In this document: in pieces, positions 11,239 through 55,845 of the stretch
Layout: the number at the start of each line of letters is the position of its first letter
Position numbering within the stretch: the stretch's first letter is position 1
Translations under genes and position numbers: made by a program
Notes under the pieces: generated by a model
The model's database searches: none
Told to the model about the DNA's origin: nothing
The model's input: the letters and a program-made list of their open reading frames with translations, nothing else
Origin: Bacillota bacterium
GTDB taxonomy: Bacteria; Bacillota; Dehalobacteriia; UBA4068; UBA4997
DNA length: 64,000 bases
Assembly (NCBI GenBank): GCA_021769035.1
Contig: JAETTP010000001.1
Coordinates: forward strand, 35,408-99,407
Direction of reading: 5' to 3'

Positions 11239-11255
11239 TTTATGATTATTAAAGC

Positions 11256-11284
11256 TTGCTATTTAGCAAAAACTATAGTATAAT
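11256..11284 (+). promoter_or_regulatory. sigma-A type promoter of peptide A mRNA
   Basis: TTGCTA-17-TATAAT. Gives a ~130-nt 5' UTR. Confidence 0.5.
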
Positions 11285-11419
11285 ATTAATTACAAAGAGT
11301 TGAAACCTTAAACAGGCGGTTAGCCCTCGGACGCAAAGCAATACATTCGTGAAAAATGTATGGTTGAACGAAAGAGGGATTGGGGCCCTCCTCACAAAAA
11401 CAACGAGGAGGTGATGTTA

Positions 11420-11503
11420 ATGAGTTTTATGGAAGTCGCAACGTTTTTATTAGTACTTATAGCGTTTGCCGATGTGATATTAACCCATTGCAAAAAGAAA
11501 TAG
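11420..11503 (+). CDS. 27-aa hydrophobic Lys-tailed peptide (MSFMEVATFLLVLIAFADVILTHCKKK), putative type I toxin
   Basis: GAGGAGG SD 7 nt before ATG. That SD is perfectly complementary to an upstream CCTCCTC (SD-sequestering hairpin). Stop lies inside the terminator hairpin shared with the convergent sRNA. Confidence 0.55.
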   Translation: MSFMEVATFLLVLIAFADVILTHCKKK

Positions 11504-11584
11504 CCGCCCAGTTTCGCAGACTCGCGGCTATTCTTTTTAGCTAGCATCTGAGGGCTGACCCAGTTTAAGGGATCGGCTCTTTGT
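11492..11584 (-). ncRNA. antisense sRNA, family 1, putative type I antitoxin
   Basis: Minus-strand TTGACA(11619-11614)-17-TATAAT(11596-11591). Terminator is the same hairpin (11499-11532) followed by U-run. Overlaps peptide A 3' end by ~45 nt. Confidence 0.5.
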
Positions 11585-11760
11585 ACTTATATTATAGCAT
11601 TTGTTTTTGTTGTTGTCAATATGCCAAAAGCGGTTGAATAGAAAGTTTATGTTGTAATTTGTTGGTAAATATGCTATAATGGGACAGAAAAGAGTTGATT
11701 CTTTGGATGGCGGCCAACCTTACTCGTAAACTTTCGTTAAGCGAGGAAGGGGGTGAGCTC

Positions 11761-11844
11761 ATGAGTTTTGTTGAAGTAATTCTTTTACTTAGCTTTCTCA
11801 TTGAGGTTGTGGATTTTGTTTACCGAATCACAACAAAAAAATAG
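11761..11844 (+). CDS. 27-aa hydrophobic peptide variant (MSFVEVILLLSFLIEVVDFVYRITTKK), putative type I toxin
   Basis: Own promoter TTGTAA(11652)-17-TATAAT(11675). [13 protein letters not shown] sequestered by upstream ccttactcg. Stop sits in the atagccg...cggctat terminator. Confidence 0.5.
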   Translation: MSFVEVILLLSFLIEVVDFVYRITTKK

Positions 11845-11930
11845 CCGACCCGACCAAAGGCTGCGGCTATTTTTTGTACAAAATAGTTGAGTTAAGGTTG
11901 ATTGCTTGAAAATGCAGTCAACTCTTTTCA
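11836..11930 (-). ncRNA. antisense sRNA, divergent body, putative antitoxin of peptide B
   Basis: Minus-strand TTGACA(11965-11960)-17-TATAAT(11942-11937). Shared bidirectional terminator with peptide B. Confidence 0.45.
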
Positions 11931-12249
11931 TCTATTATTATAGCATTTGTTTTTGTTGTTGTCAATGCCCTTTTGCCGCCCAAACTCTTTAATGCCTAAT
12001 TTTTACCTAACCGCACCAGCAATACCTTTTCTCAATCGCTAAGTGTTCATAGAGGATTACATTTGCCTAAAGTCAAATGTATGCGTGAACACTAAGCTCT
12101 TGCTACGCCTTACAGGCTAAGCACTCGCTAAGTGTTCACGCAAAAAAACAGTAGACTTTTTGAGCTTGTGGGTGTAAAATATATTTATAAAAATTGTTAA
12201 AGCTTTCAGAAATCGACTTTGCTAACTTGCTCGATTGGAGGAATCAGCG

Positions 12250-22158: not shown

Positions 22159-22277
22159 GTATTTTGGCGTATTTTTTAGTAAAATAATACTGTATTATTA
22201 AGCCTCGGTTCGCCAGCTCAAAAGTTTTTAACGGTTCTGCGATTGACAAAAACAATTTTCAATGCTATAATATAAAT

Positions 22278-22370
22278 ATAAAGAGCCGACCCCTCAAACC
22301 GGGTCAGCCCTCAAAAGCTTCAGTTAAAAATAGCCGTTACCTTTGGAGCAGGGCGGCTATTTCTTTTTGC
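22278..22370 (+). ncRNA. antisense sRNA, family 1, putative type I antitoxin (copy C)
   Basis: TTGACA(22243)-17-TATAAT(22266). Body aaagagccgacccctcaaaccgggtcagccctc. Terminator aatagccg...cggctatttcttttt shared with convergent peptide C. Confidence 0.5.
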
Positions 22371-22440
22371 AATGGGTTAATATCACATCTGCCAACGCTA
22401 TAAGTACTAATAAAAACGTTGCGACCTCCATAAAACTCAT
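22357..22440 (-). CDS. 27-aa hydrophobic peptide (MSFMEVATFLLVLIALADVILTHCKKK), putative type I toxin copy C
   Basis: One residue different from copy A. Same GAGGAGG SD with CCTCCTC anti-SD. Minus-strand promoter TTGCAT(22602-22597)-17-TATAAT(22579-22574). Homologous ~130-nt 5' UTR. Confidence 0.55.
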   Translation of the reverse strand: MSFMEVATFLLVLIALADVILTHCKKK

Positions 22441-22682
22441 CAACATCACCTCCTCTCCTTGCGTTGAGGAGGGCCCCAATCCCTCAGTCAGCCAACTGTA
22501 CATTTTTCACCAATGCACCGTTTAACTTCCAAGGGCTAACCGCCTGTCTGAATTTTCAGCTCTTTGTATTTATATTATACAACCTTTTAGTTTTGTATGC
22601 AAGCTTATTTTAAAGTTGCCAAATCCTCCCTGCTTGTGCTATAATATATATTTAATAACCAGCACAAGCGAGGGATTTTTTT

Positions 22683-42965: not shown

Positions 42966-43129
42966 TGACAACCTCACATCAAAAATTTTTGATATAATTA
43001 TTATATATTGATCTCGGCGATTTGTCAATAGGCTAAATCAAAATATTTTGATATATTTGTAGTGCTATAGGTTATTTCTAATCAACTGTTATTTCAAATA
43101 GCATAGCCAAGCTTGCCAATCGCTAAGTG

Positions 43130-43178
43130 TTCGCACAAAAAACCCTCGCAAGCATTTCACTCCGAGGGTTTTTATTAT
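43130..43178. terminator. bidirectional intrinsic terminator
   Basis: aaaaccctcgcaagcatttcactccgagggttttt. Confidence 0.6.
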
Positions 43179-43904: not shown

Positions 43905-44753
43905 TTAACGCCGACGCCGGCGGCGTTTTTTCGGTGTTTGCTCCGAATCCTCAGCAGCAGTTTCCGCCACAGTTTCAGCTTGTTCCTCTTCCGCCGATGT
44001 TTCCTTTTTCTCAGTTTTTTTCAAATCAGACCGACGATGATTTCCCTTGCTCTTGTGGCTGCCGCGCTGCTCGTCCCGCTGGCGTTTTTCTTCGGCCAGC
44101 TCCTCAGCGCGCTGTTGTAATTTGGCCCGCATCGGCTTGTTAATAGCCAGCTGTTGCAGAATACCCACCACCGTGACGCCCAACCAGTAAATGCACAAAA
44201 AAGCCGGAAATGAAGCGGCCATCCAGCCCATCATCAAAGGCATTGCAAACAACATATATTTCTGCATCGGCTGGTTTGGTTTGCCGGTGATGATATAGCT
44301 TTGTAAAAAGGTACTGCCAGCCACTAAAACAACCATTATATAAGTGCTGTCAACCTGACTTAAATCTGAAATCCACAAAAATTTGTAAAATTCCTGGTGC
44401 AACGGCACAAACTGGCGCAGGCCGTTGTAAAGACCAATCATAATTGGAAACTGAATCAACATTGGCAGGCAACCTGCCAAAGGGTTGATGTTGTAATCCT
44501 GATAGAGTTGCATCAGCTTTTGATTCATAAGCTCTGGATTGTTGGCATAACGCTGCTGAAGCTCCTGCACTTGCGGCTGAATTGCCTGCATGGCCACGGA
44601 GGAACGCAACTGGTTGATGTTTAAGGGCATCAAAATCAGCCTGATTATCACGGCGATGGCCAAAATAGCCACCGCATAGCTGGGAAAACCCAGCGATTGC
44701 GTGATATTAAACAGAAATTCCACACAATCCGCTACAAGAGTTTGAAATGACAT
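43905..44753 (-). CDS. yidC: membrane protein insertase YidC/SpoIIIJ
   Basis: YidC 60-kDa inner membrane insertase core. Basic C-terminal tail. Confidence 0.9.
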   Translation of the reverse strand: MSFQTLVADCVEFLFNITQSLGFPSYAVAILAIAVIIRLILMPLNINQLRSSVAMQAIQPQVQELQQRYANNPELMNQKLMQLYQDYNINPLAGCLPMLIQFPIMIGLYNGLRQFVPLHQEFYKFLWISDLSQVDSTYIMVVLVAGSTFLQSYIITGKPNQPMQKYMLFAMPLMMGWMAASFPAFLCIYWLGVTVVGILQQLAINKPMRAKLQQRAEELAEEKRQRDEQRGSHKSKGNHRRSDLKKTEKKETSAEEEQAETVAETAAEDSEQTPKKRRRRRR

Positions 44754-44859
44754 TTTTCTTAATATTTACCTCTTAATCTTTTCCGCCCTCCCCAATCGGG
44801 AGGGCCCGCTGTTTAACTTTTTCTGAAATTTTAGTAAAATATGGCTTAATTTAAAAATT

Positions 44860-45078
44860 TTATTTTACCGGGTCGTAGCCGCCTTTACAAAAAGGATGGC
44901 ATCTTAAAATACGGCGAAGCGCCAGCAAACCGCCTTTCAGCGCACCATATTTTTCAATAGCCTGCATTGCATAAGCCGAGCAGGTGGGAATGTAACGGCA
45001 ATTTGCACCCAAAAGCGGTGAAATTGCAGCCCGATAAAATCGAATCAGCGCCAACAAAATTTTACTCATTGCGCTCAC
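44860..45078 (-). CDS. yidD: membrane protein insertion efficiency factor YidD
   Basis: [14 protein letters not shown]...[11 protein letters not shown] motif. Confidence 0.85.
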
Positions 45079-45503
45079 CTATCTTTTTGACCAACCGCGG
45101 ATTCGTCTATCGTTTGTACCGCGATTTTTTCCGGTTGTTTAGCGGCGGTCAACAAGCCGCCATCCTGCAAGGTTTTCAGCAGCTTTTTGCGCAAAGCCGG
45201 CACGCTTTCTGCTTTGGCGCCCTGGCGAGCAATCAGCACATAATCAAAGCCAGTTGCAAAAGCTGCCAGTTCCAAACGGCAGGCCTCGCGCAGTTTGCGG
45301 CGCACTCGGTTGCGCTCCACCGCATTGCCAATCTGTTTAGATACGGAAAAGCCCAGGCGCGGCCCGCAAGCGGTTTGCTTTTTTTTAGGCCCCGTGACAC
45401 GCCGAAAACACAGCACAAACGCCCGATTTTTCAGAGATTTACCTCTTTGATAAACCCGACGAAAGTCCTGCCTTCTTTTCAATCGAAATTGTTTTTTTAA
45501 CAT
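45075..45503 (-). CDS. rnpA: RNase P protein component
   Basis: RNR motif region and basic composition. Position after rpmH. Confidence 0.9.
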
Positions 45504-45520
45504 CTTGGCTTAACCGCAGA

Positions 45521-45655
45521 TTAAGCAGAGAGAACTTTGCGCCCTTTTGCCCGGCGGCGGGCCAAAACCTTGCGTCCGTTTTTGCTGCTCATACGCGCCA
45601 TAAAACCATGTACTCTCTTGTGTACACGTTTTTTCGGCTGATAGGTTCTTTTCAT
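45521..45655 (-). CDS. rpmH: 50S ribosomal protein L34
   Basis: [44 protein letters not shown]. Below the ORF-track length cutoff. Confidence 0.9.
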
Positions 45656-45943
45656 AGTACATTACCTCCATTCTGTTTTTGCAAGTTTAGCATTTAACTG
45701 CATTTTAAGCAGTTAAATTATATCATATACAAAACGGCGGCTTTTGTCAAGCAGTTAATTACAAAAAGATGTTTATAAAAGTTTAAACTTTTCCACAAAA
45801 TATACCTTGTAAAAGTGGAAAAAATTTGGTATTATAGATAAGCGGGATATTTTTTCGCCCAATTTGGTTGACATTTTAAATTTTGTCCCCAGTTTTCTGT
45901 TGAAAACCCCGCCGGATTTTTTTACCCTAGGAGAATTTATTTT

Positions 45944-47293
45944 ATGAAGTATGAGCTATGGCCGCAAATTTTGGCCGATTTACAACAACACCTCAGTCAG
46001 GAAACTATTGAACGTTGGTTCAACAACGTCATCGACGTTGACAAGCGCCAATCCACCCTATATATCAAAGTGCACACGGACGGACAGGCGGAATGGATGG
46101 AAAAGCACTATGCGCAAATTTTACAGGAAAGTGTAATCAAGGTAGCCGATGAAAATTTGGACGTGGTTTTCATCATCAGCGATAACCAGCCCGCCTTGGC
46201 CAATCAACAGACGCAAACCCAAGCAACTTACCAGCCGGAGGCCTACACGGCCCAAGGCAACCGTTTTAATTTCAATCCGCGTTACAACTTTGAAAGCTTT
46301 GTGGTTGGCAGCAGCAACCGTTTTGCCCACGCAGCCGCCCTGGCGGTGGCCGACCGCCCGGCCAAAAACTATAACCCGCTGTTTCTCTATGGCGGCTCCG
46401 GCCTGGGCAAAACTCATTTAATGCACGCCATCGGGCACCGGGTGCTCAGCCTGCGCCCAAACACCAATATTCTCTACATATCCACCGAAACTTTCACCAA
46501 TGAATTTATTTCCTCGGTGCGGCAGGGCTCCGCCCACAAATTTAAAAACCGTTATCGCACCGCCGACATCTTTCTAGTGGACGATATTCAGTTTTTAACC
46601 GGCAAAGAAGGAACCCAGGAGGAATTTTTCCACACCTTTAACGCGCTTTATGAGCAGGGCAAGCAAATTGTGATCAGCTCCGATCGGCACCCCAAGGACA
46701 TCGCCACTTTGGAGGAGCGTCTGCGCTCGCGCTTTGAGGGCGGTCTGATTACAGATATTCAGCCGCCGGATTTGGAAACCCGTATCGCAATTCTTCAATA
46801 TAAATCATCGGTGGAAAATTTAAAAATCACTAACGATTCGATCGCCTATATCGCTTCCAACATTCCCTCCAATATCCGCGAGCTGGAGGGCGCTCTGAAC
46901 CGAGTAAAATATTACGCCCTGGTGACTAACTCGCCGATTATTGATTTAAGCCTGACGGAAAAGGTAATGGAGGATATTTTGCCCAACAAGCAAAAGCAGG
47001 CCCTTTCCCCGGATTTAATCAAAGAATGTGTAGCCAACTACTTCAATCTGCAAAGCGCGGCCGATTTAGCCTCGCCCAGGCGCGATCAGAGTATCACCAA
47101 GCCGCGCCACATTGCGATGTATCTTTGCCAAACCCTGCTACATATGAGCCTGAACGAAATCGGCGAGCACTTTGGCAAACGCGACCACACCACGGTTTTG
47201 AACGGAACCAAGAAAATCACCAATAACCTGAAGCTGGACCTCAATTTGCAGCAATCCATTCAGGAGCTGACCGATATTATCAAACGGGCCTGA
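45944..47293 (+). CDS. dnaA: chromosomal replication initiator DnaA
   Basis: AAA+ GGSGLGKTHL. C-terminal DNA-binding domain. DnaA-box variants TTTTCCACA upstream. Confidence 0.95.
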   Translation: MKYELWPQILADLQQHLSQETIERWFNNVIDVDKRQSTLYIKVHTDGQAEWMEKHYAQILQESVIKVADENLDVVFIISDNQPALANQQTQTQATYQPEAYTAQGNRFNFNPRYNFESFVVGSSNRFAHAAALAVADRPAKNYNPLFLYGGSGLGKTHLMHAIGHRVLSLRPNTNILYISTETFTNEFISSVRQGSAHKFKNRYRTADIFLVDDIQFLTGKEGTQEEFFHTFNALYEQGKQIVISSDRHPKDIATLEERLRSRFEGGLITDIQPPDLETRIAILQYKSSVENLKITNDSIAYIASNIPSNIRELEGALNRVKYYALVTNSPIIDLSLTEKVMEDILPNKQKQALSPDLIKECVANYFNLQSAADLASPRRDQSITKPRHIAMYLCQTLLHMSLNEIGEHFGKRDHTTVLNGTKKITNNLKLDLNLQQSIQELTDIIKRA

Positions 47294-47364
47294 ACGTTTA
47301 TATTGACAACAGTACTATATTATAGTAAAATATAGGCAAATAATTTTTATAGTGAGGTATAGTT

Positions 47365-47472
47365 ATGCATCTTCCAGTTTATTCTTATGTCTTATCGGCT
47401 GTCAATGTAGTAATATTAGTTGCTATGACCTATTTGGTCTATCGAGTAGCTAAATTTTTCCTGAAAAAGTAA
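47365..47472 (+). CDS. 35-aa hydrophobic Lys-tailed membrane peptide (MHLPVYSYVLSAVNVVILVAMTYLVYRVAKFFLKK)
   Basis: Promoter TTGACA-17-TAAAAT at ~47306. SD GTGAGGT. Strong terminator gagccgcccttttcaaacaaagggcggctttttttgtg immediately after stop. Confidence 0.45.
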   Translation: MHLPVYSYVLSAVNVVILVAMTYLVYRVAKFFLKK

Positions 47473-47539
47473 AGTTTAAGAGAACGAGCCGCCCTTTTCA
47501 AACAAAGGGCGGCTTTTTTTGTGTAAACACTTAGCGATT

Positions 47540-47950
47540 GACAAGTCCACTTTTTTTAGATAACAGCTTTTCCACCTGTGCAGAAAAAAAACTTTTTCTT
47601 AAACCGAAATCTTCAAAAAAAACCTATTGTGATATTCCGTTAATTATAGTATAATATTCAGACACAGAAAAGTTTTTCCACCGAGTTTTACAGATTTTGG
47701 AAAACTTTGTGCACATTGGCTGTTATTAATCTGTGTAAAACTAATTATGCCAGTTAAAAAAAGGTTTTTTGCACAAAATTACCCCAGGCAATTAACATTT
47801 TATACCCACGCCAAAAAAGGCAGCAAAACCTTATAAAATCTGGCTGCAAAAAGTTTTCCACAAAATAAACACAGCTTATTATTATTACCACCATTTAAAT
47901 AACTATAATAATATATATGAGCCTCACAACAATAATATTACCAAAGGAGT
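47540..47950. other. oriC region (dnaA-dnaN intergenic)
   Basis: Multiple DnaA-box-like 9-mers (ttttccacc x2, gttttccaca). AT-rich unwinding stretch. Internal TTGTGA-17-TATAAT promoter. Confidence 0.5.
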
Positions 47951-47958
47951 AAAATTCA

Positions 47959-49071
47959 ATGAACATTAATTGCCAAAAGGAAGATTTACTGTATGCCGTT
48001 CAGATTATCGGCAAAGCGATTTCAGCCAAAAATACAATGCCAATCTTAAACGGTATTTTAATTATTGCTGAGGAAAATTTTATCACCCTGCGGGCCACCG
48101 ATTTGGATATTGCTATTCAGTGCAACGCTCCGGCTGATGTGGTGGAAACCGGCGAGCTGGTGATTGCCGACGGCAAGCGTTTTATTGACGTGGTACGCCA
48201 ACTGCCGGATAATAATATTAATATCAGCCTGATTAATGATTTTGATATTAATATAAATTATGGCTCTTCTTCTATTAATATGCGTGGTTTTGCCGCCGAC
48301 CAATTTCCGCAGCTGCCCAATCTGGCCGGGGATATGCAGGCCAGTGTTAAGGGCGAGGTTTTTTCCCGCATGGTTAAGCAGACGGCTATTGCTTCCGCTA
48401 ACGACGAAATTCAGCCAATCCTCACCGGTATTATGCTGGATATTAACGGCGAGCAGCTGAATTTGGTGGCTACCGATTTTCACCGGCTGACCCTTTGTCA
48501 GGGAGTTTGGCAGACTCAAAACCAACAGCAGACTCAGGTTATCGTGCCGGCTAAAACTATGTTGGACGTGGCTAATCTGGCCGATGCGGAGGAACAGGTG
48601 GAAATCAGTATCAGCCATAACAACGCTTGCTTTAAGATGGGCGCAACTATTTTTGTTTCCCGCCTAATCTCCGGCCAGTTCCCGGATTATCGGCCGATTA
48701 TTCCCAAGGAGGAAAGCTTTAAACACCAGGTTTACGTCAACAAGCAGCTGTTGGGCAGCGCGCTGCGCCGGGCCAGCCTGCTTAGCAAGGACATAAACAA
48801 CACGGTGCGCCTGAAGTTTGAGGAGGGGCAGATCGTTATGACCGCCAACACTACGGATATTGGCAATATCCGCGAGGTTATCCCGGCTGATTTTCAGGGC
48901 GAGGAGCTGATGGTGGGCTACAACCTTAAATATCTTTTGGACTTTTTGAAAGTGAGCAGCAGCGAAAATATTTATATGAAGCTTTCCGGCAATTTAACCC
49001 CCGGCGTGATGTTGGAGGAGGATAACGCCAGCTTTACTTATATCGTGCTGCCGCTGCGTTTGATTGACTAA
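47959..49071 (+). CDS. dnaN: DNA polymerase III beta sliding clamp
   Basis: Three-domain beta-clamp. Conserved position. Confidence 0.95.
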   Translation: MNINCQKEDLLYAVQIIGKAISAKNTMPILNGILIIAEENFITLRATDLDIAIQCNAPADVVETGELVIADGKRFIDVVRQLPDNNINISLINDFDININYGSSSINMRGFAADQFPQLPNLAGDMQASVKGEVFSRMVKQTAIASANDEIQPILTGIMLDINGEQLNLVATDFHRLTLCQGVWQTQNQQQTQVIVPAKTMLDVANLADAEEQVEISISHNNACFKMGATIFVSRLISGQFPDYRPIIPKEESFKHQVYVNKQLLGSALRRASLLSKDINNTVRLKFEEGQIVMTANTTDIGNIREVIPADFQGEELMVGYNLKYLLDFLKVSSSENIYMKLSGNLTPGVMLEEDNASFTYIVLPLRLID

Positions 49072-49079
49072 AAAGGCGG

Positions 49080-49316
49080 GTGAGGCAAATGCCGAGTGAA
49101 ATACAGCAGATTAGGGTGGAAAGCCTGCCGATTACGCTGGCCCAGTTTTTGAAATGGTGCGGTGCAACGCTGACCGGCGGCCAGGCTAAGGAGTTGATTC
49201 AGGCCGGCCGGGTGCAGCTGAACGGCGAGCCTTGTTTGCAGCCAGGGCGCAAGCTACAACCGGGGGATTTGATTGAATTGCAGGGGAGCCGCTGGCAGCT
49301 GGTTTTGCCTGAGTAG
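49080..49316 (+). CDS. yaaA: S4-domain RNA-binding protein YaaA
   Basis: S4 fold. Conserved dnaN-yaaA-recF order. Confidence 0.8.
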   Translation: MRQMPSEIQQIRVESLPITLAQFLKWCGATLTGGQAKELIQAGRVQLNGEPCLQPGRKLQPGDLIELQGSRWQLVLPE

Positions 49317-49352
49317 GCTTGTTGAAGCAAGGGGGAATGGCTTATCTTACGT

Positions 49353-50468
49353 TTGGACAGCCTGTTGCTGCGTAACTTCCGCAATTATGAGGAATGTTCG
49401 CTGCAATTTCATCCCAAGCTGAATGTGATAATCGGCGATAATGCGCAGGGCAAAACCAATTTGTTGGAGGCTATCTCCTATTTGAGTTTGGGCTCCTCCT
49501 TTCGTGGCCAGCCTAATGATAAGATTAAACGTTGGGACAGTGATTTCTTCTTTTTGCGGGCCAACTACCAAAACCAGCTGGGCCCGCACAGCCTTTCTGT
49601 CGGTTTTCAAAAGCGGGAACGGATTTGGAAAAAGGACGAACAGCCTTGCAGCCGGCTCAGCGAGATTGTGGGCCAGCTGCATACTGTGGTTTTTAGCCCG
49701 GAGGATTTGAAGCTGGTGCAGAGCGGGCCGGACAAGCGGCGCGCCTTTTTGGATAGGGAAATGGTGCAGCTGCTGCGCGGCTATCATATTTATTTGAATA
49801 ATTACAAAAGGGCCTTGGTGCAGCGTAATAATTTGTTGAAGCAAATGCCGCCGGATTTGCTGTTTAGCTCCGCCGGCGACGAGCAGCTGGCAATTTGGGA
49901 GGAACAGCTGGCCATCAATGGGGCAGAGATTGTGCGGCGGCGCAGTTTTACCTTGCAGGCCCTGAATGAGATTTGTCAACAACTGCATTCGGAACTGACC
50001 GGCGGCCGGGAGCGTTTGCGCCTGGCCTATAGCTGTGCCTGGGCGGAGGCGGCCGGCTTGCCGGCGGCCAAGCTGGCTGATTTGCTGCGTCAAAGCTACG
50101 TCCAGGGCCGGCGGGAGGATAAGCAACGCCGTTTAACATTGCTGGGGCCGCACCGAGATGATTTTGCTATTTATATTAACGAGGTGGACGGCCGTACCTT
50201 TGGCAGCCAGGGGCAGCAGCGCACGGCGGCCCTAGCTTTGAAGCTTTCTGAGCTGGAATTGGTGCATAAGCTTTCCGGCTACTATCCATTGCTGTTGCTG
50301 GACGATGTTTTTTCCGAGCTGGACAGCAGCCGGCGGCAGGCTTTGCTGAGCCTGATGTTGAACAAGGCGCAGATTTTCATTACTTGCACAGAAATTGCCA
50401 GTGATTTGCGTGGGCTTAATCCGGCTGATTATCAGCTTTTTAAGGTTCAGGCCGGCAGTATAAAATAA
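49353..50468 (+). CDS. recF: DNA replication and repair protein RecF
   Basis: LLLRNFRNY, GDNAQGKTNLLEA Walker A, SMC-like signature. TTG start. Confidence 0.9.
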   Translation: MDSLLLRNFRNYEECSLQFHPKLNVIIGDNAQGKTNLLEAISYLSLGSSFRGQPNDKIKRWDSDFFFLRANYQNQLGPHSLSVGFQKRERIWKKDEQPCSRLSEIVGQLHTVVFSPEDLKLVQSGPDKRRAFLDREMVQLLRGYHIYLNNYKRALVQRNNLLKQMPPDLLFSSAGDEQLAIWEEQLAINGAEIVRRRSFTLQALNEICQQLHSELTGGRERLRLAYSCAWAEAAGLPAAKLADLLRQSYVQGRREDKQRRLTLLGPHRDDFAIYINEVDGRTFGSQGQQRTAALALKLSELELVHKLSGYYPLLLLDDVFSELDSSRRQALLSLMLNKAQIFITCTEIASDLRGLNPADYQLFKVQAGSIK

Positions 50469-50514
50469 ATTTGGGCTGAAATATAATAAATAATAAAATT
50501 AAGGTAATATTGTA

Positions 50515-51309
50515 ATGCAGAATTTGGATAAGATTAAGCAGGCGGAAATTGCCGTTTACGATTCCGGCGTGGGCGGTATCAGCTTTTTGCCCACAGCTTG
50601 CAGTTTGCTGCCGGCGGAGCGTTTCGTCTACTATGGCGATTTGGCTAACGCGCCTTACGGCGACCGCAGCCAGGCTTTTATTATTAATCGGGCCAGGGAG
50701 ATTGTGGCTTTTTTCCGCCAGCGTGGGGTTAAGGCTTTGGTGATTGCCTGCAACACGGCCACCAGCGCGGCGGCGGCCACTTTGCGGGCGGAGAACCCCG
50801 ACCTGCCGATTTTTGGCATGGAGCCGGCGGTGCATTTGGCTGTTAAGCGCGGCGAAAAGAAAATTATTATGCTGGCTACGGAGTTGACAGCCAACGGTGA
50901 AAAGCTGCGCCGGCTTTTAAGCGCGGAGGCCGGGGCGGCGGAAATTGTAACCATTGCTTGCCCCGGTTTGATGGAGTTGATTGAAACCAATTTGGTTAAG
51001 GGTGAAACGGCGGCGATTAAGGAATATTTGCAGGCTAAGCTTTTGCCGCAGGTGACGGACGGCTGCGCCGTGGTGCTTGGCTGCACGCATTATATTTTTT
51101 TGCGCGGTTTGCTGCCGCGGCTTTTTCCTGGTTTGCGCCTTTACGACGGCAATTTTGGCACAGCGCAAAATTTGCGCCATCGTTTGGCGCAGGCCGGCTT
51201 GCTGTGCCCGGAGGAGGGGCAGGCTATGGTTGGGGAAATTCCCTGCTTTGGTTTGCCGCCGGAAAAGTTTGCCGCTTATCTGAAGCTGGCCAGTTCATTG
51301 GAATATTAA
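50515..51309 (+). CDS. murI: glutamate racemase
   Basis: YDSGVGGIS, VIACNTAT, LGCTHY motifs. Confidence 0.9.
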   Translation: MQNLDKIKQAEIAVYDSGVGGISFLPTACSLLPAERFVYYGDLANAPYGDRSQAFIINRAREIVAFFRQRGVKALVIACNTATSAAAATLRAENPDLPIFGMEPAVHLAVKRGEKKIIMLATELTANGEKLRRLLSAEAGAAEIVTIACPGLMELIETNLVKGETAAIKEYLQAKLLPQVTDGCAVVLGCTHYIFLRGLLPRLFPGLRLYDGNFGTAQNLRHRLAQAGLLCPEEGQAMVGEIPCFGLPPEKFAAYLKLASSLEY

Positions 51310-51347: not shown

Positions 51348-51359
51348 AATTAAAGATTA

Positions 51360-51686
51360 TTATTTATTTTTTCTTTTCTTGATAATTTTTTCCAGAAAAT
51401 ATTCTGAATATTGGTTGGGATTGTTAATAATCTCGTATGCTGCGATTGCAACCTGAATCCCGTACAAAGCGGCGGTTGTGGTTTTGGCTGAAACGTGGTC
51501 ATTAAAGTTGCGACGAAGTTCCTCTATAGTTTCATTTGAAACTTCTTTTCTCAAGCTGTTTAAGATACTAATAATGTTATCTTGCGTTAAATTAATTACG
51601 GGATTGTTGATTTCAAGTTTTAACCATTCATTCGTTTCCATAATGCTGTTTACTAGGTTAAAGCAAAATTTTGGATTTGTAAGCAT
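51360..51686 (-). CDS. hypothetical 108-aa protein, AT-rich codons, helical; possible HEPN-like Rx4H (RNFNDH)
   Basis: Start at MLTNPK with AGGAGG RBS 8 nt upstream. The ORF-track N-terminal extension MPNPKIRGV... is antisense to the sRNA promoter and is rejected. Confidence 0.5.
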   Translation of the reverse strand: MLTNPKFCFNLVNSIMETNEWLKLEINNPVINLTQDNIISILNSLRKEVSNETIEELRRNFNDHVSAKTTTAALYGIQVAIAAYEIINNPNQYSEYFLEKIIKKRKNK

Positions 51687-51755
51687 AAAAAAACCTCCTA
51701 AAATTTCGTTTGTAAAAGTCTTGCCAAAACAGGAGGTATATGCTATAATATTTAC

Positions 51756-51823
51756 ACCTCTTATTTTGGGGTTGGGCACTCACATTTGCTTTTGTGGGCG
51801 TGGTGGGTGTCCTTTTTTTATTT
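51756..51823 (+). ncRNA. sRNA X1 (promoter-to-terminator unit), convergent with RHH1
   Basis: TTGCCA(51721)-17-TATAAT(51744). Hairpin gggcactcac...gtgggtgtcc plus U9. No ORF. Confidence 0.4.
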
Positions 51824-51991
51824 GCTGAGTTCTTCGTCTACTTTTTCGTTTAACCAATCAGCTTTGGTTCTACCTTGAATTCTAAGTTTTGCTTCTAATG
51901 CTTCAACTTTTTCTCTTTTAAGCATTACGTTAAACTGTTTCATAGTTTTGCGTCTTTCACGAAAATACTCAGCTCTACTTTTTACGGCCAA
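51818..51991 (-). CDS. ribbon-helix-helix (CopG/ParD-like) small DNA-binding protein RHH1
   Basis: TTG start with AAAGGAGG RBS 7 nt upstream. ...KQFNVMLKREKVEALEAKLRIQGRTKADWLNEKV has beta-strand then two helices. Own minus-strand promoter TTGACA-17-TATAAT (52048-52019). Not in ORF track. Confidence 0.5.
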   Translation of the reverse strand: MAVKSRAEYFRERRKTMKQFNVMLKREKVEALEAKLRIQGRTKADWLNEKVDEELSK

Positions 51992-52148
51992 ATCGTCGCC
52001 TCCTTTGGTTGCCTGCTACAATTATATCAAGTTGCAGGCTACTTGTCAATAGGTTTTTGAAAAATTTAGATTGTAAGCATAAAAAACATCCTAAATTTTC
52101 GTTTGTAAAAGTCTTGCCAAAACAGGAGGTATATGCTATAATATTTAC

Positions 52149-52216
52149 ACCTCTTATTTTGGGGTTGGGCACTCACGTTTGCTTTTGCGGGCTTGGTGGG
52201 TGTCCTTTTTTATTTT
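52149..52216 (+). ncRNA. sRNA X2 (near-identical duplicate of X1), convergent with RHH2
   Basis: TTGCCA(52114)-17-TATAAT(52137). Same hairpin plus U-run overlapping the RHH2 stop codon. Confidence 0.4.
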
Positions 52217-52380
52217 TTTAACCTGTTATAGACCTCTTTAATACCTTGGCGAATGATTTCAGATTTTGTCAATCCAGTTTCTTGGACACAAAATTCAAGA
52301 CGTTTTATATCTTCTTCTGATAATCTAATTCGCGTATTTAATATTTTAGGGTCATTGGTTGGACGTCCTTTTGGGGACAA
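52210..52380 (-). CDS. ribbon-helix-helix (CopG/MobC-like) small protein RHH2
   Basis: TTG start after AAAGGAGGTG. (M)SPKGRPTNDPKILNTRIRLSEEDIKRLEFCVQETGLTKSEIIRQGI. Promoter TTGACA-17-TATAAT (52457-52428) overlapped by palindrome GTATCCACA-N14-TGTGGATAC. Confidence 0.6.
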   Translation of the reverse strand: MSPKGRPTNDPKILNTRIRLSEEDIKRLEFCVQETGLTKSEIIRQGIKEVYNRLKK

Positions 52381-52523
52381 GTTTTCACCTCCTTTTAGTA
52401 TCCACAATTATTATATGATATGTGGATACATTTGTCAAGAGGTTTTTGAAAAGTTTAGATTGTAAGCATAAAAAAACCTCCTAAAGTATTGAAATAACCC
52501 TCGGAAGCTGGTATAATAGATTT

Positions 52524-52599
52524 ACCGACCTCTAAAGGTTGTGTGTAATAACAGTATTGCTTGGCTTGTTTAGGGTGTTGCAATACTGTTATTTTTTTT
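52524..52599 (+). ncRNA. sRNA X3, convergent with RHH3
   Basis: TTGAAA(52489)-17-TGgTATAAT(52512). 11-bp stem aacagtattgc/gcaatactgtt plus U8. RHH3 stop lies in the stem. Confidence 0.4.
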
Positions 52600-52762
52600 G
52601 GCTCAAAAGTAAACTTATTCCTTGCCTAATTGCTTCGCCTTTAGTTATATTATTTTCTAAACTGTAAGCTTGCAATTTTTCTTCAGTTTCTAAATCTAGT
52701 CGAATACTGTACCGAATTGTTTTTGGATTATCTACTTTTGGACGACCAGTGCGTGGACTCAA
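52589..52762 (-). CDS. ribbon-helix-helix (CopG/MobC-like) small protein RHH3
   Basis: TTG start after AGGTGA. (M)SPRTGRPKVDNPKTIRYSIRLDLETEEKLQAYSLENNITKGEAIRQGI, paralogous to RHH2. Promoter TTGACT-17-TATAAT (52820-52790). Confidence 0.6.
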   Translation of the reverse strand: MSPRTGRPKVDNPKTIRYSIRLDLETEEKLQAYSLENNITKGEAIRQGISLLLSQKK

Positions 52763-52877
52763 ATCATCACCTACTTTCTGCCACACCATAATTATATAAA
52801 AAGCGTGACAAAAAGTCAATAGTTTTTTTGAAAAAATTCAGATTGACAAAAACAATTTAAAATGCTATAATAATAAA

Positions 52878-52963
52878 AAAGGCACCGTAAGTAAGCGGTT
52901 AGCCTCATCGTTTTGGTGTTATTTTTTAACAACCGTCACTACTGACACTAGTGGCGGTTTTTG
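52878..52963 (+). ncRNA. antisense sRNA X4, putative antitoxin of peptide D2
   Basis: TTGACA(52843)-17-TATAAT(52866). Terminator ccgtcact...agtggcgg plus U5. Overlaps last codons of convergent peptide. Confidence 0.45.
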
Positions 52964-53031
52964 CTATGTCTAAACTTAATCTCAATCGAAATTTTAAAAA
53001 TTCCAATATGAAATATCAGCTTTATTGGCAT
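52948..53031 (-). CDS. 27-aa amphipathic basic-tailed peptide (MPIKLIFHIGIFKISIEIKFRHSKNRH), putative type I toxin D2
   Basis: AAGGAGGTG SD 7 nt before ATG. Anti-SD atcctcc-aaaa-ggaggtg hairpin. Minus-strand promoter TTGACA(53238-53233)-17-TATAAT(53215-53210). ~170-nt 5' UTR carrying the CGCTAAGTG hairpin motif. Confidence 0.5.
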   Translation of the reverse strand: MPIKLIFHIGIFKISIEIKFRHSKNRH

Positions 53032-53308
53032 AGGCCTCACCTCCTTTTGGAGGATATTGACTAACCGTTAAGTGAGCACTTAGCGACTGCCAAGGCCGCA
53101 GGCCGCAGACAGAGCTTAGTGCGAACAAATACCGCAGGTGCAAATAGAATTGTCTGAAAACAAAACTTTGCTCCTGCGGTGCCTACCGTTTGTTACGATG
53201 CCTGTTTAAATTATACAAATTATTGTTCTTATTGTCAAGCTGCGCATAAGTTTTTGCTAACCTAATTTTGCGATTGACAAAAGCGATTTGAAATGCTATA
53301 ATAAAAGC

Positions 53309-53403
53309 ACAAAGAGCCGACTCCTTAAACCGGGTCAGCCATCAGAATTTAACAATTACATAAGTAATAGCCGTTTTTCTTGGTCAGGGCGGCTATTTTT
53401 TTT
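53309..53403 (+). ncRNA. antisense sRNA, family 1, orphan copy D (toxin decayed)
   Basis: TTGACA(53274)-17-TATAAT(53297). Body aagcacaaagagccgactccttaaaccgggtcagcc. Terminator aatagccg...cggctat-U9. Opposite strand 53404-53440 keeps only the 3' half of the toxin ORF (…LVLITFADLILTHCKKK*) with no start. Confidence 0.45.
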
Positions 53404-53508
53404 GCAATGGGTTAATATTAAATCGGCAAACGTTATAAGAACTAATAAAACCGCTACTAAATAGCCCTTAGTAGCGGTTTAGTATTATTTTTTTTGAATG
53501 TCAATATC

Positions 53509-54613: not shown

Positions 54614-54958
54614 TTAGTTGTTGTTGCAGCCGCAACCGCAGTTCCAGTTGCAAACAAGGCCCAGGATGCTTTGCAGAATGGTCAGAGTAACCACAATGTT
54701 CACCCAATCGCCAATGAAGTTGTAGGCAGCGTTGCCCAGGTTGGAACCATAGTTGTTGCCGCAGCCACAACCGCATCCACAGCCGTTCCAGTTTCCGCAG
54801 CTGTTGCAGCCATTGTTGCAACCGCAGGAATTACAGCCGCAGGTGTTGCAACCGCAGGTGCTGTTCCCACAGGTCATTGGGGTGTTGTAGGTTACGGTTG
54901 GCATTGTGCCGCAGGAATTACAACCGCAGCTGTTGCCATAGATGGAATTTAAGAGCAT
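54614..54958 (-). CDS. Cys-rich protein with CGCNSCG repeats
   Basis: AAGGAGGT RBS. ~30% Cys/Gly/Asn in C-G-C-N-x-C-G units. Hydrophobic C-terminal segment. Confidence 0.55.
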   Translation of the reverse strand: MLLNSIYGNSCGCNSCGTMPTVTYNTPMTCGNSTCGCNTCGCNSCGCNNGCNSCGNWNGCGCGCGCGNNYGSNLGNAAYNFIGDWVNIVVTLTILQSILGLVCNWNCGCGCNNN

Positions 54959-55044
54959 TTTGTTGACCTCCTTTTAATTTTGATATTTATATTTATGAAT
55001 TAACAGGGCTGGTGGTGCAAACTATTTATCAGCCCTGGTTGTTG

Positions 55045-55338
55045 TTATTGCCCGGTGCAGGGTGTGAAAGCTTCTTCATCGTCGCAGGGGCGGCAGGTGC
55101 AGCAGACGTTGCCGGTGAAGCTGACGCCGCCTAGCGGCCAACGCCGGCCAAAAATTCCCCAACCGCCCATAGGAGTGAAGCAGCGGTTATCATGGCAGGT
55201 GCAGATGAAGTTTCTTTCCTCGCCGTTACATTGGGGAACACTACAGATGAAGGTTTCTTCCTCGCTATTACACGGAGAAAAACAACAGGGGCAATTTCTC
55301 CTCCCGGAGCAATTACAAAAATTATTACAGCAGGCCAT
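55045..55338 (-). CDS. Cys-rich protein (97 aa, ~20 Cys)
   Basis: Start at MACCNNFCNC with AAGGAGGG RBS 7 nt upstream. Terminator hairpin cagggctg...cagccctg follows. Confidence 0.55.
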   Translation of the reverse strand: MACCNNFCNCSGRRNCPCCFSPCNSEEETFICSVPQCNGEERNFICTCHDNRCFTPMGGWGIFGRRWPLGGVSFTGNVCCTCRPCDDEEAFTPCTGQ

Positions 55339-55487
55339 ATTAAGCCCTCCTTTTTTATGTTCAGCTTTGCGCTTTACATTTGTTTTATAGTACAAGATAT
55401 GCAGTTGTAACGGGGGCGGTGCTTGTCTGCCGGATTTGGCTTGTTTTGTTTTAAATTTTTCCTTAGGTATTGAAGCGAGAAAAAAAA

Positions 55488-55845
55488 TGTGGTATAATGT
55501 GAGTACTCAGTGAAATCAAGCCGCAGGCGATGATTGAACTGTAGTCGAACAAATACCATAGTGCAATCTGTTGTGATAAGGTGAGATAACCTTGTTTCTA
55601 TGGTATAATGTGAGTACTCAGTGAAATCAAGCCGCAGGCGATGATTGAACTGTAGTCGAACAAATACCATAGTGCAATCTGTTGTGATAAGGTGAGATAA
55701 CCTTGTTCCTATGGTATAATGTGAGTACTCAGTGAAATCAAGCCGCAGGCGATGATTGAACTGTAGTTGAACAAATACCATAGTGCAATCTGTTGTGATA
55801 AGGTGAGATAACCTTGTTCCTATGGTATAATAATATAATATTAAG
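55488..55845 (+). repeat. 111-bp tandem direct repeat, 3 full and 1 partial copies, each with an extended -10 promoter and a TGAGTACTCA palindrome
   Basis: TATAAT at 55493, 55604, 55715 and 55826 (period exactly 111). Copies differ at 1-2 positions. First copy has -35 TTGAAG. Confidence 0.9.

Follow-up and report, generated by a model that had tools for sequence, protein, structure and literature searches.

A conserved 27-codon gene with a convergent antisense RNA in a Bacillota genome: a probable type I toxin-antitoxin-like module encoding a predicted β-hairpin peptide

The locus analyzed here lies at positions 52843-53238 of a 64,000-nucleotide (nt) stretch of DNA from a Bacillota bacterium (assembly GCA_021769035.1, contig JAETTP010000001.1, positions 35,408 to 99,407), which we call the window and whose numbering we use throughout. 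It comprises a gene for a 27-residue peptide on the minus strand and a convergent gene for a small RNA (sRNA) on the plus strand. At the level of sequence comparison, the peptide gene is shown to be coding and conserved, and the layout of the locus, the sequestration of the Shine-Dalgarno (SD) sequence and the complementarity between the 5′ and 3′ parts of the mRNA are shown to be conserved and covarying. We think that the locus is probably a type I toxin-antitoxin-like module whose toxin family is undescribed, with the peptide as its putative toxin.

The open reading frame (ORF) has 27 codons on the minus strand (53031..52948, ATG to TAG, with the TAG at 52950..52948) and, as an initial annotation of this DNA had stated, encodes a peptide unrelated in sequence to the MSFMEVATF... 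toxins found elsewhere in the window. It is preceded by the SD sequence AAGGAGGTG (53046..53038) and a spacer, AGGCCT, of 6 nt, where 7 had been given. The anti-SD stem, proposed with seven-base arms (atcctcc-aaaa-ggaggtg), does form, with only 5 base pairs (bp; CCUCC-AAAA-GGAGG, 53053..53040), the outer A/T and T/G bases remaining unpaired. Both promoters are perfect, as annotated, and that of the sRNA has a TG extension in addition. With a probable transcription start near 53203, the 5′ untranslated region (UTR) measures about 172 nt, close to the ∼170 nt of the annotation. The parts of the locus are:

53238..53210, minus strand: mRNA promoter, TTGACA-17-TATAAT (consensus scan, 12/12)
53182..53202, minus strand: mRNA 5′ end, GGCATCGTAACAAACGGTAGG, first part of the strand able to pair with the mRNA's own 3′ region (predicted duplex)
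53067..53181, minus strand: 115-nt insertion in the 5′ UTR (comparison with relatives)
53059..53066, minus strand: GGTTAGTC, second part of the 5′ strand of the fold-back helix (conserved motif)
53038..53053, minus strand: anti-SD hairpin CCUCC-AAAA-GGAGGUG, containing the ribosome-binding site (predicted pairing)
52948..53031, minus strand: gene of the 27-residue peptide MPIKLIFHIGIFKISIEIKFRHSKNRH, stop codon included (relatives, codon statistics)
52843..52871, plus strand: antisense sRNA promoter, TTGACA-17-TGcTATAAT, with TG extension (consensus scan, 12/12)
52878..52964, plus strand: predicted antisense sRNA of about 88 nt, with putative ends (fold and conserved layout)
52881..52904, minus strand: mRNA 3′ region, GGCUAACCGCUUACUUACGGUGCC followed by UUUUUU, lying opposite the 5′ hairpin of the sRNA and able to pair with the mRNA 5′ end (predicted folds)

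The sRNA consists of a 5′ hairpin (52881-52904, GGCACCGUAAGUAAGCGGUUAGCC, 24 nt), a variable spacer, a terminator (52931-52959) and a U run, and is predicted to fold into two hairpins with −27.6 kcal/mol. Its terminator, an 11-bp stem with TTTTT to 52962, overlaps the stop and the last codons of the ORF, as had been annotated. On the opposite strand, a simple scan called no terminator at 52881..52904, so that the 3′ end of the mRNA is uncertain. The surrounding 3-kb island is AT-rich, again in agreement with the annotation (GC 0.33-0.41 against about 0.53 in the flanks), and contains 21 promoter-like sites, five of them perfect, against 6.2 ± 2.5 in shuffled sequences; the pattern of the sRNA promoter occurs three times in the window and not once in 100 shuffles.

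For protein searches, the peptide was padded to 40 residues with the in-frame residues upstream of it. This query yielded three clusters with the same peptide, and profile searches raised the total to 35 clusters (relatives P0001-P0038), most of whose members are 29-31 residues long and whose consensus is MPITLTFHxGxxTxTxxIKxKSNNRHSAK; in the sub-branch that includes the window peptide, Lys, Ser or Glu takes the place of Thr. Over codons 2-19, the variable sites are distributed 3/2/12 among the three codon positions, 12 of 17 thus being in third position. In these codons the window and its relative L044 differ by eight synonymous and no non-synonymous changes, and the relatives L034 and L044 by a proportion of synonymous differences (pS) of 0.96 and of non-synonymous differences (pN) of 0.07. 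Across the entire ORF pN/pS is about 0.1-0.3, with lower values in codons 2-19, and both other reading frames are closed by stops. These comparisons identify the ORF as a real, small coding gene whose peptide is selected as a protein product. By our own estimate, an open frame of 27 codons has a chance of about 13% at this base composition, and I, K and F are residues favored by AT-rich DNA; yet the conservation of the peptide in 35 clusters, the excess of third-position changes, the stops in the other frames, the low pN/pS and an SD at optimal spacing in every relative leave next to nothing to the notion of a chance open frame in a purely non-coding locus, and we treat it as excluded.

The C-terminus NRHSAK is typical of most family members. 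The window peptide stops two to three codons early, at NRH, and the gene of L044 also has 27 codons. As the conserved NRHSAK is encoded by the terminator stem-loop, constraints on the RNA and on the peptide are inseparable there. Searches of JGI metagenomes with a strict peptide pattern gave 0 matches and with a looser pattern 26, of which L046 was the sole real one; the patterns had 0 matches in a viral collection, and tblastn searches of the peptide against plasmids and phages gave chance matches only. In blastn searches of the island against plasmids and phages, the ribbon-helix-helix (RHH) gene alone was matched. Exact look-up found neither the 30-residue form starting with GTG nor the 49-residue overlapping ORF on record.

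To compare the locus as a whole we used DNA recovered from six gene neighborhoods, including that of the window, with 11 other distinct alleles. The island of the window lies beside dnaA-dnaN-recF-murI at the replication origin; the other neighborhoods are downstream of pepF and a cold-shock gene, downstream of queDECF (queF), beside a phage terminase, between ABC and MFS transporter genes (with two copies as an inverted pair) and beside a UvrD-like helicase gene. Every neighborhood has the strong promoter, the anti-SD hairpin, the ORF and a convergent sRNA gene of 85-95 nt, which starts from a promoter of its own and ends in a terminator reaching over the stop codon, with the 5′ hairpin, spacer and terminator arranged in the same three-part layout throughout; the sRNA promoter opposite the peptide gene is kept in every relative. 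At the place of the mRNA promoter, L024, L034, L044 and L074 have TTGACA and a −10-like hexamer 17 nt on, and in L075 the −35 box reads TTGACC. The GGAGG of the SD is predicted to be paired with a probability of ≥0.91 in the window and ≥0.96 in five other lineages, and the pairing of the anti-SD hairpin survives sequence change, for example as CCCUC/GGGGG in L024. The window locus itself is 100% identical in an independent sample (L023). RNAalifold gave little information on the sRNAs, MAFFT having set their terminators out of register.

One contig, L074, carries two complete β-hairpin modules at 1900-2700, as an inverted pair about 390 nt apart with an A-rich spacer, and their peptides differ by one residue. 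A patchy distribution over several contexts, sometimes with duplication, is typical of type I modules (PMC6563280).

The 5′ hairpin of the sRNA has, in every lineage, a same-sense near-copy in the first ∼30 nt of the mRNA. Since the 3′ region of the same mRNA is antisense to that hairpin, the two parts of the mRNA are complementary to each other. The duplex between the 5′ and 3′ parts has 22-29 bp and −30 to −46 kcal/mol, matched by 0 of 1000 shuffles, and its mean energy is −37.9 kcal/mol for cognate pairs against −25.8 kcal/mol for cross-lineage pairs. In an alignment of the helix that was assembled by hand from segment ends, and therefore leans toward structure, 98.9% of the cells are paired and 10 of 20 pairs show compensatory changes, a result that 0 of 500 shuffles match; sliding the register of the helix lowers pairing to 24-48%. 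All relatives keep the motif GG(Y)GGTTRGYC, whose partner in the 3′ region is GGCTAACC(GC). Every full-length mRNA has a predicted minimum-energy fold that is closed by the helix; in the window copy, the insertion then forms a side branch. Prediction and covariation thus both point to long-distance pairing of the hok/aapA type, provided that the mRNA reaches 52881. Read-through past the first hairpin is likely in the window and L024, since neither has a U run after it.

The peptide family has a strictly alternating pattern. Its positions 3, 5, 7, 9, 12, 14, 16 and 18 are hydrophobic in 97-100% of the members, whereas positions 4, 6, 8, 13, 15, 17 and 19 are hydrophobic in 0-20% and mostly hold Thr, Lys, His or Ser; the two stretches are separated by a glycine-containing turn at positions 10-11. 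The β moment is 0.6, against an α moment of 0.17. AlphaFold2 models of a 30-residue monomer show a β-hairpin with strands 3-9 and 12-18 and a pLDDT of 87-90 over residues 1-20, with a shallow as well as with a deeper alignment. The usual type I toxin is small and hydrophobic and combines a transmembrane helix with a charged tail (PMC2887945, PMC6563280). Such a helix is absent here and the tail has its counterpart in a basic C-terminus. The alternating pattern and the basic tail suggest that the peptide might oligomerize as a β structure and act on the membrane from within the cell. In calling the gene a second toxin type, the initial annotation was right about an unrelated coding gene; as the peptide lacks the hydrophobic membrane helix of known type I toxins, its role as a toxin is one that we infer.

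No match to the window peptide was found among Pfam, NCBIfam and PHROGs models at E-values up to 10, a PDB sequence search returned nothing, and none of the curated toxin and antitoxin models (Fst, TxpA/BsrG, Hok, Ldr, RatA and others) scored above its family threshold. Rfam gave no family at threshold and only weak, chance-level matches. The searchable literature yielded no paper with peptide strings of this family or of the window's other 27-residue toxins. We also considered the YrzI family (TIGR02413), which bears a weak likeness to the peptide in its alternating T-x-T hydrophobic stretch only; the scores of three relatives, 15-17 bits, stay below the cut-off of 47 bits, and the window peptide had no match, so that it is not a member.

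From these parts we propose the following course of events. The strong minus-strand promoter would give rise to an mRNA for a cationic 27-residue peptide, predicted to form an amphipathic β-hairpin, and the local hairpin over the ribosome-binding site would restrain its translation. The strong plus-strand promoter would produce an RNA of about 88 nt with full complementarity to the last part of the coding region and to the 3′ UTR, and the duplex of the two RNAs could lead to cleavage (by RNase III) and decay of the mRNA, as for bsrG/SR4. The 5′ end of the mRNA may pair with the mRNA's own 3′ region into an inert and protected closed form, like that of the hok or aapA1 mRNAs, with the sRNA competing for the same 3′ region. 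Upon loss of the sRNA, the peptide would be made.

Of the known systems, bsrG/SR4, txpA/RatA, bsrE/SR5 and yonT/SR6 of Bacillus subtilis resemble the locus in their convergent genes and in an antitoxin RNA that is complementary to the toxin mRNA in its 3′ part. As here, the terminator of the antitoxin lies at the end of the toxin gene and the SD in a short helix (PMC3834814), and the systems are located in islands or prophage-like DNA (PMC6563280). Their toxins have 28-60 residues and a transmembrane helix, whereas the window peptide is predicted to be a β-hairpin and matches them neither in sequence nor in models. The SR4-style extension of the SD helix was not reproduced computationally at the window locus. 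For this group, we know of no description of a 5′-3′ fold-back.

The mRNA of hok has a full-length form that is closed by pairing between its 5′ and 3′ ends. The predicted 5′-3′ closure of the full-length mRNA and the sequestered SD are what the window locus has in common with hok/sok of plasmid R1 and aapA1/IsoA1 of Helicobacter pylori; in aapA1, the 5′-3′ folding blocks translation until the 3′ end has been processed (PMC5416894). In hok and aapA1, however, the site bound by the antisense RNA is the 5′ or translation-start region of the processed mRNA, whereas the sRNA of the window locus lies opposite the mRNA 3′ end, fold-back partner included, and shows no significant pairing with the 5′ UTR. 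Its 5′ hairpin mimics the mRNA 5′ end. The phyla also differ, and the toxins of hok and aapA1 are helical. A third comparison concerns par (Fst/RNA II) of the Enterococcus faecalis plasmid pAD1, where convergent transcripts share a common terminator region and repeats are found at both transcript starts. Convergence, terminator sharing and start repeats are also found at the window locus. Yet the par repeats are direct, so that the two RNAs pair at their 5′ ends, while those of the window locus are inverted, which makes the mRNA similar to the sRNA at its 5′ end and lets this end pair with the 3′ end of the same mRNA. Fst, finally, is a helical membrane peptide and the window peptide has no Pfam match.

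Parallels in layout also lie within the window itself. Hydrophobic 27-residue peptides (MSFMEVATFLLVLIALADVILTHCKKK and variants) with convergent sRNAs are encoded at two loci, 22243-22640 and 11255-11625, with MSFMEVATFLLVLIALADVILTHCKKK at 22443..22363 and 11420-11503. A third type of 27-residue toxin, MSFVEVILLLSFLIEVVDFVYRITTKK (11762-11844, plus strand), occupies the locus 11625-11975, which adjoins 11255-11625; it has its own convergent sRNA promoter (11966..11933) and a 5′/3′ complementarity of −38.7 kcal/mol. The two families of loci agree in the length of the ORF, the anti-SD hairpin, the sRNA terminator over the stop and the 5′/3′ complementarity, which is present at all three other toxin loci of the window with −39 to −59 kcal/mol; the chassis is thus shared more deeply than the initial annotation had proposed. 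The promoters of the sRNAs are nearly the same (29 of 31 specified bases). In contrast, the peptides of the other loci are unrelated, hydrophobic and helix-like, without sequence similarity between the MSFMEVATF... family and the peptide studied here, and the loci align with the β-hairpin locus at the promoters only.

A genome-wide scan for the shared sRNA promoter found 11 matches, all at unrelated genes with generic strong promoters, and the near-identity of this promoter among the window's toxin loci largely reflects just such a generic strong promoter. In two of the window's other toxin loci, the mRNA 5′ UTR contains the motif GGCGGTTAGCC, of which a one-mismatch copy, AGCGGTTAGCC, is found in the 5′ hairpin of the sRNA studied here; GGCGGTTAGTC occurs in the mRNA 5′ UTR of relatives of the B family. 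Taken alone, the 11-mer that is shared has no significance (4 matches, with 2.05 expected). The likeness of the chassis in the two families therefore stands as a likeness rather than a demonstrated homology. Of the annotation's idea that a second toxin had been recruited into a common chassis, the common layout holds; recruitment is not demonstrable, because the peptides form an independent family of at least 35 clusters whose own chassis is conserved at every recovered locus.

One feature sets the window copy apart from most of its relatives. Between 53181 and 53067 its leader carries the 115-nt insertion, which is predicted to form two hairpins (53181..53131 and 53122..53076). The second is the GCACTAAGC/GCTAAGTGC stem that the initial annotation had described as a hairpin of two CGCTAAGTG motifs; the hairpin is indeed predicted, with one exact copy only (53085..53077), which pairs with GCACTAAGC (53122..53114) in a 9-bp stem with one A·A mismatch. 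That this hairpin belongs to the shared regulatory grammar, as had been supposed, we cannot uphold, as the insertion that contains it is missing from 10 of the 11 other distinct alleles (L024-L045, L074, L075), whose leaders have only 65-95 nt. The remaining allele, L046, comes from another species and has a 121-nt version at the identical site and a GTG start codon, and its flanks are 99% identical to the insertion-free L024 of the same species. Given these insertion-free contigs with near-identical flanks, the insertion is, by sequence comparison, a polymorphic add-on outside the shared grammar. The natural alleles with and without the insertion of 115-121 nt are a ready-made experiment on the importance of the leader.

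The insertion, a structured element of ∼115 nt with the motif CGCTAAGTGYTCA / GCACTAAGC, may be a small repeat element. A related element is found at 12037-12138 (plus strand), upstream of a gene for a LuxR-like protein of 789 residues, and single copies of the half-motif occur just before terminators at 43121-43133 (plus strand) and 47524-47536 (minus strand). Public contigs of the source species repeatedly break within the insertion, at 53174. A search of viral contigs with a 17-mer of the insertion gave two chance matches.

Several observations weigh against a type I module with a fold-back mRNA. The best hydropathy over 17 residues is 1.39 for the window peptide, with a family median of 1.16, compared to 2.3-2.6 for the other toxins of the window, and the longest run without K, R, D or E has 8 residues, the net charge being about +5. 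The AlphaFold2 models are those of a monomer, and the helix alignment behind the covariation count, being hand-assembled, is tilted toward the structure. Read in the mRNA sense, L034, L035 and L044 have a U run after the first hairpin, and many transcripts may end there, before the fold-back partner; in the window copy, the insertion splits the 5′ strand of the helix. Pairing between the 5′ part of the sRNA and the 5′ UTR is not significant (62 of 500 shuffles were as good), so that a par-like 5′ interaction was dropped, and a tightening of the SD helix induced by the sRNA was rejected as well, the signs being mixed across lineages (+3.1, +1.2, −0.8, −3.5, +2.7 and +2.0 kcal/mol).

The lack of a membrane-spanning helix would also suit a conserved small protein that is not a toxin but regulatory or linked to stress or sporulation, with an sRNA that only tunes its level. 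No family model or publication names the peptide, and the genomes of the relatives are those of spore-formers, with YqfD and Coat_F genes nearby. We nevertheless consider such a protein unlikely, as opposed promoters that are both near-perfect, together with SD sequestration and an sRNA overlapping the 3′ end, are a type I signature, the identical layout serves classic hydrophobic 27-residue toxins in the same window, and occurrence in six unrelated neighborhoods, once as an inverted pair, is the distribution of selfish modules rather than of housekeeping genes. To a similar, low degree we allow for the window copy being a disabled or attenuated relic. The insertion, which most alleles lack and whose other bearer starts with GTG, and the early stop at NRH could be read in this way, all the more so as the adjacent locus 53274-53470 has lost the start and the 5′ UTR of its toxin gene. 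In the window copy, however, promoter, SD, ATG and ORF are all intact, the shorter ORF is shared with L044, the fold predicted with the insertion still contains the anti-SD hairpin and the 5′-3′ helix, and the locus is unchanged in the independent sample.

Less probable still is that the inverted repeat at the transcript starts is the terminal repeat of a mobile element or a product of gene conversion, its complementarity having no function in RNA. The repeats do flank the entire unit, which occurs in many contexts and twice in L074, and at the window locus 22243-22640 the repeat extends into the −10 boxes. Against homogenization speaks a conserved extra segment of 6-9 nt (GGTAGG.), which is found in the mRNA copy only, in all lineages; in addition, the promoters lie outside the repeat, neither a target-site duplication nor a transposase gene was seen, and G·U pairs are tolerated, as pairing of RNA would predict. 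A type I toxin-antitoxin-like module thus remains the explanation we prefer: the locus has a small gene selected for its protein, an overlapping antisense RNA that at sequence level has its own promoter and terminator, and an SD predicted to be restrained by mRNA structure.

Type I toxins are usually found as short hydrophobic helices near antisense RNAs, a search by which a family of cationic β-hairpins would be missed. A conserved RNA layout around such a peptide would widen the notion of a type I toxin and, if the peptide is membrane-active, it would be a minimal natural β-hairpin membrane peptide free of disulfides. A testable model, joining the fold-back of hok and aapA1 to the 3′ overlap of bsrG/SR4, follows from the covariation that keeps the mRNA 5′ end matched to the 5′ hairpin of the antitoxin. 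Only tentatively do we go further and propose the first β-hairpin type I toxins, forming β pores or oligomers from the inside, together with an antitoxin RNA that mimics the mRNA 5′ end and a chassis that serves unrelated toxins. If this were true, the antitoxin RNA would vie with the mRNA 5′ end for a 3′ element that otherwise circularizes the mRNA, an amphipathic hairpin of ∼20 residues with a basic cytoplasmic tail would assemble into β-barrel-like pores or other β oligomers, and the same RNA chassis with unrelated toxins in one genome would imply a modular exchange of toxin reading frames.

The neighboring locus 53274-53470 contains an intact sRNA gene of the MSFMEV type, with its promoter at 53274-53302 and its terminator at 53366-53397. 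The toxin frame opposite has lost its start codon and leader and is altered in its reading frame at an A run. Judged by its sequence, this is a decayed copy, an orphan antitoxin with a remnant of its toxin.

On the other side of the module, 51350-52830 holds three different RHH genes with TTG starts, each with a perfect promoter. The sRNA promoter and that of the first RHH gene are back to back (52791-52871), with their −35 boxes 24 nt apart and a T6-C-A7 palindrome between them; the same arrangement is present in L024 and hints at joint control. In L024, an RHH gene and a homologous gene of 106 residues also follow the β-hairpin module, from which we conclude that the three travel together. 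The RHH gene and the gene for 108 residues in the window (51686..51360) may form a type II-like pair. A unit of 136 nt, repeated with 95% identity (51688-51823 and 52081-52216), contains truncated "MLTI*" starts of the 108-residue gene and a plus-strand promoter with a hairpin and a T run, possibly a convergent antisense RNA of ∼75 nt.

The region from 44500 to 51300 is the replication origin region, with rnpA-rpmH, dnaA, dnaN, a gene with an S4 domain, recF and murI, and the minimum of the cumulative GC skew is near 47-48 kb. The AT-rich island starts directly after murI. In public contigs of the species, the break always falls at 51733, within the repeated unit. Just past the island (54614-55400 and 55374-55831) are small Cys/Gly/Asn-rich proteins with CGCN repeats and a 111-nt tandem repeat in three copies, which are 98-100% identical.

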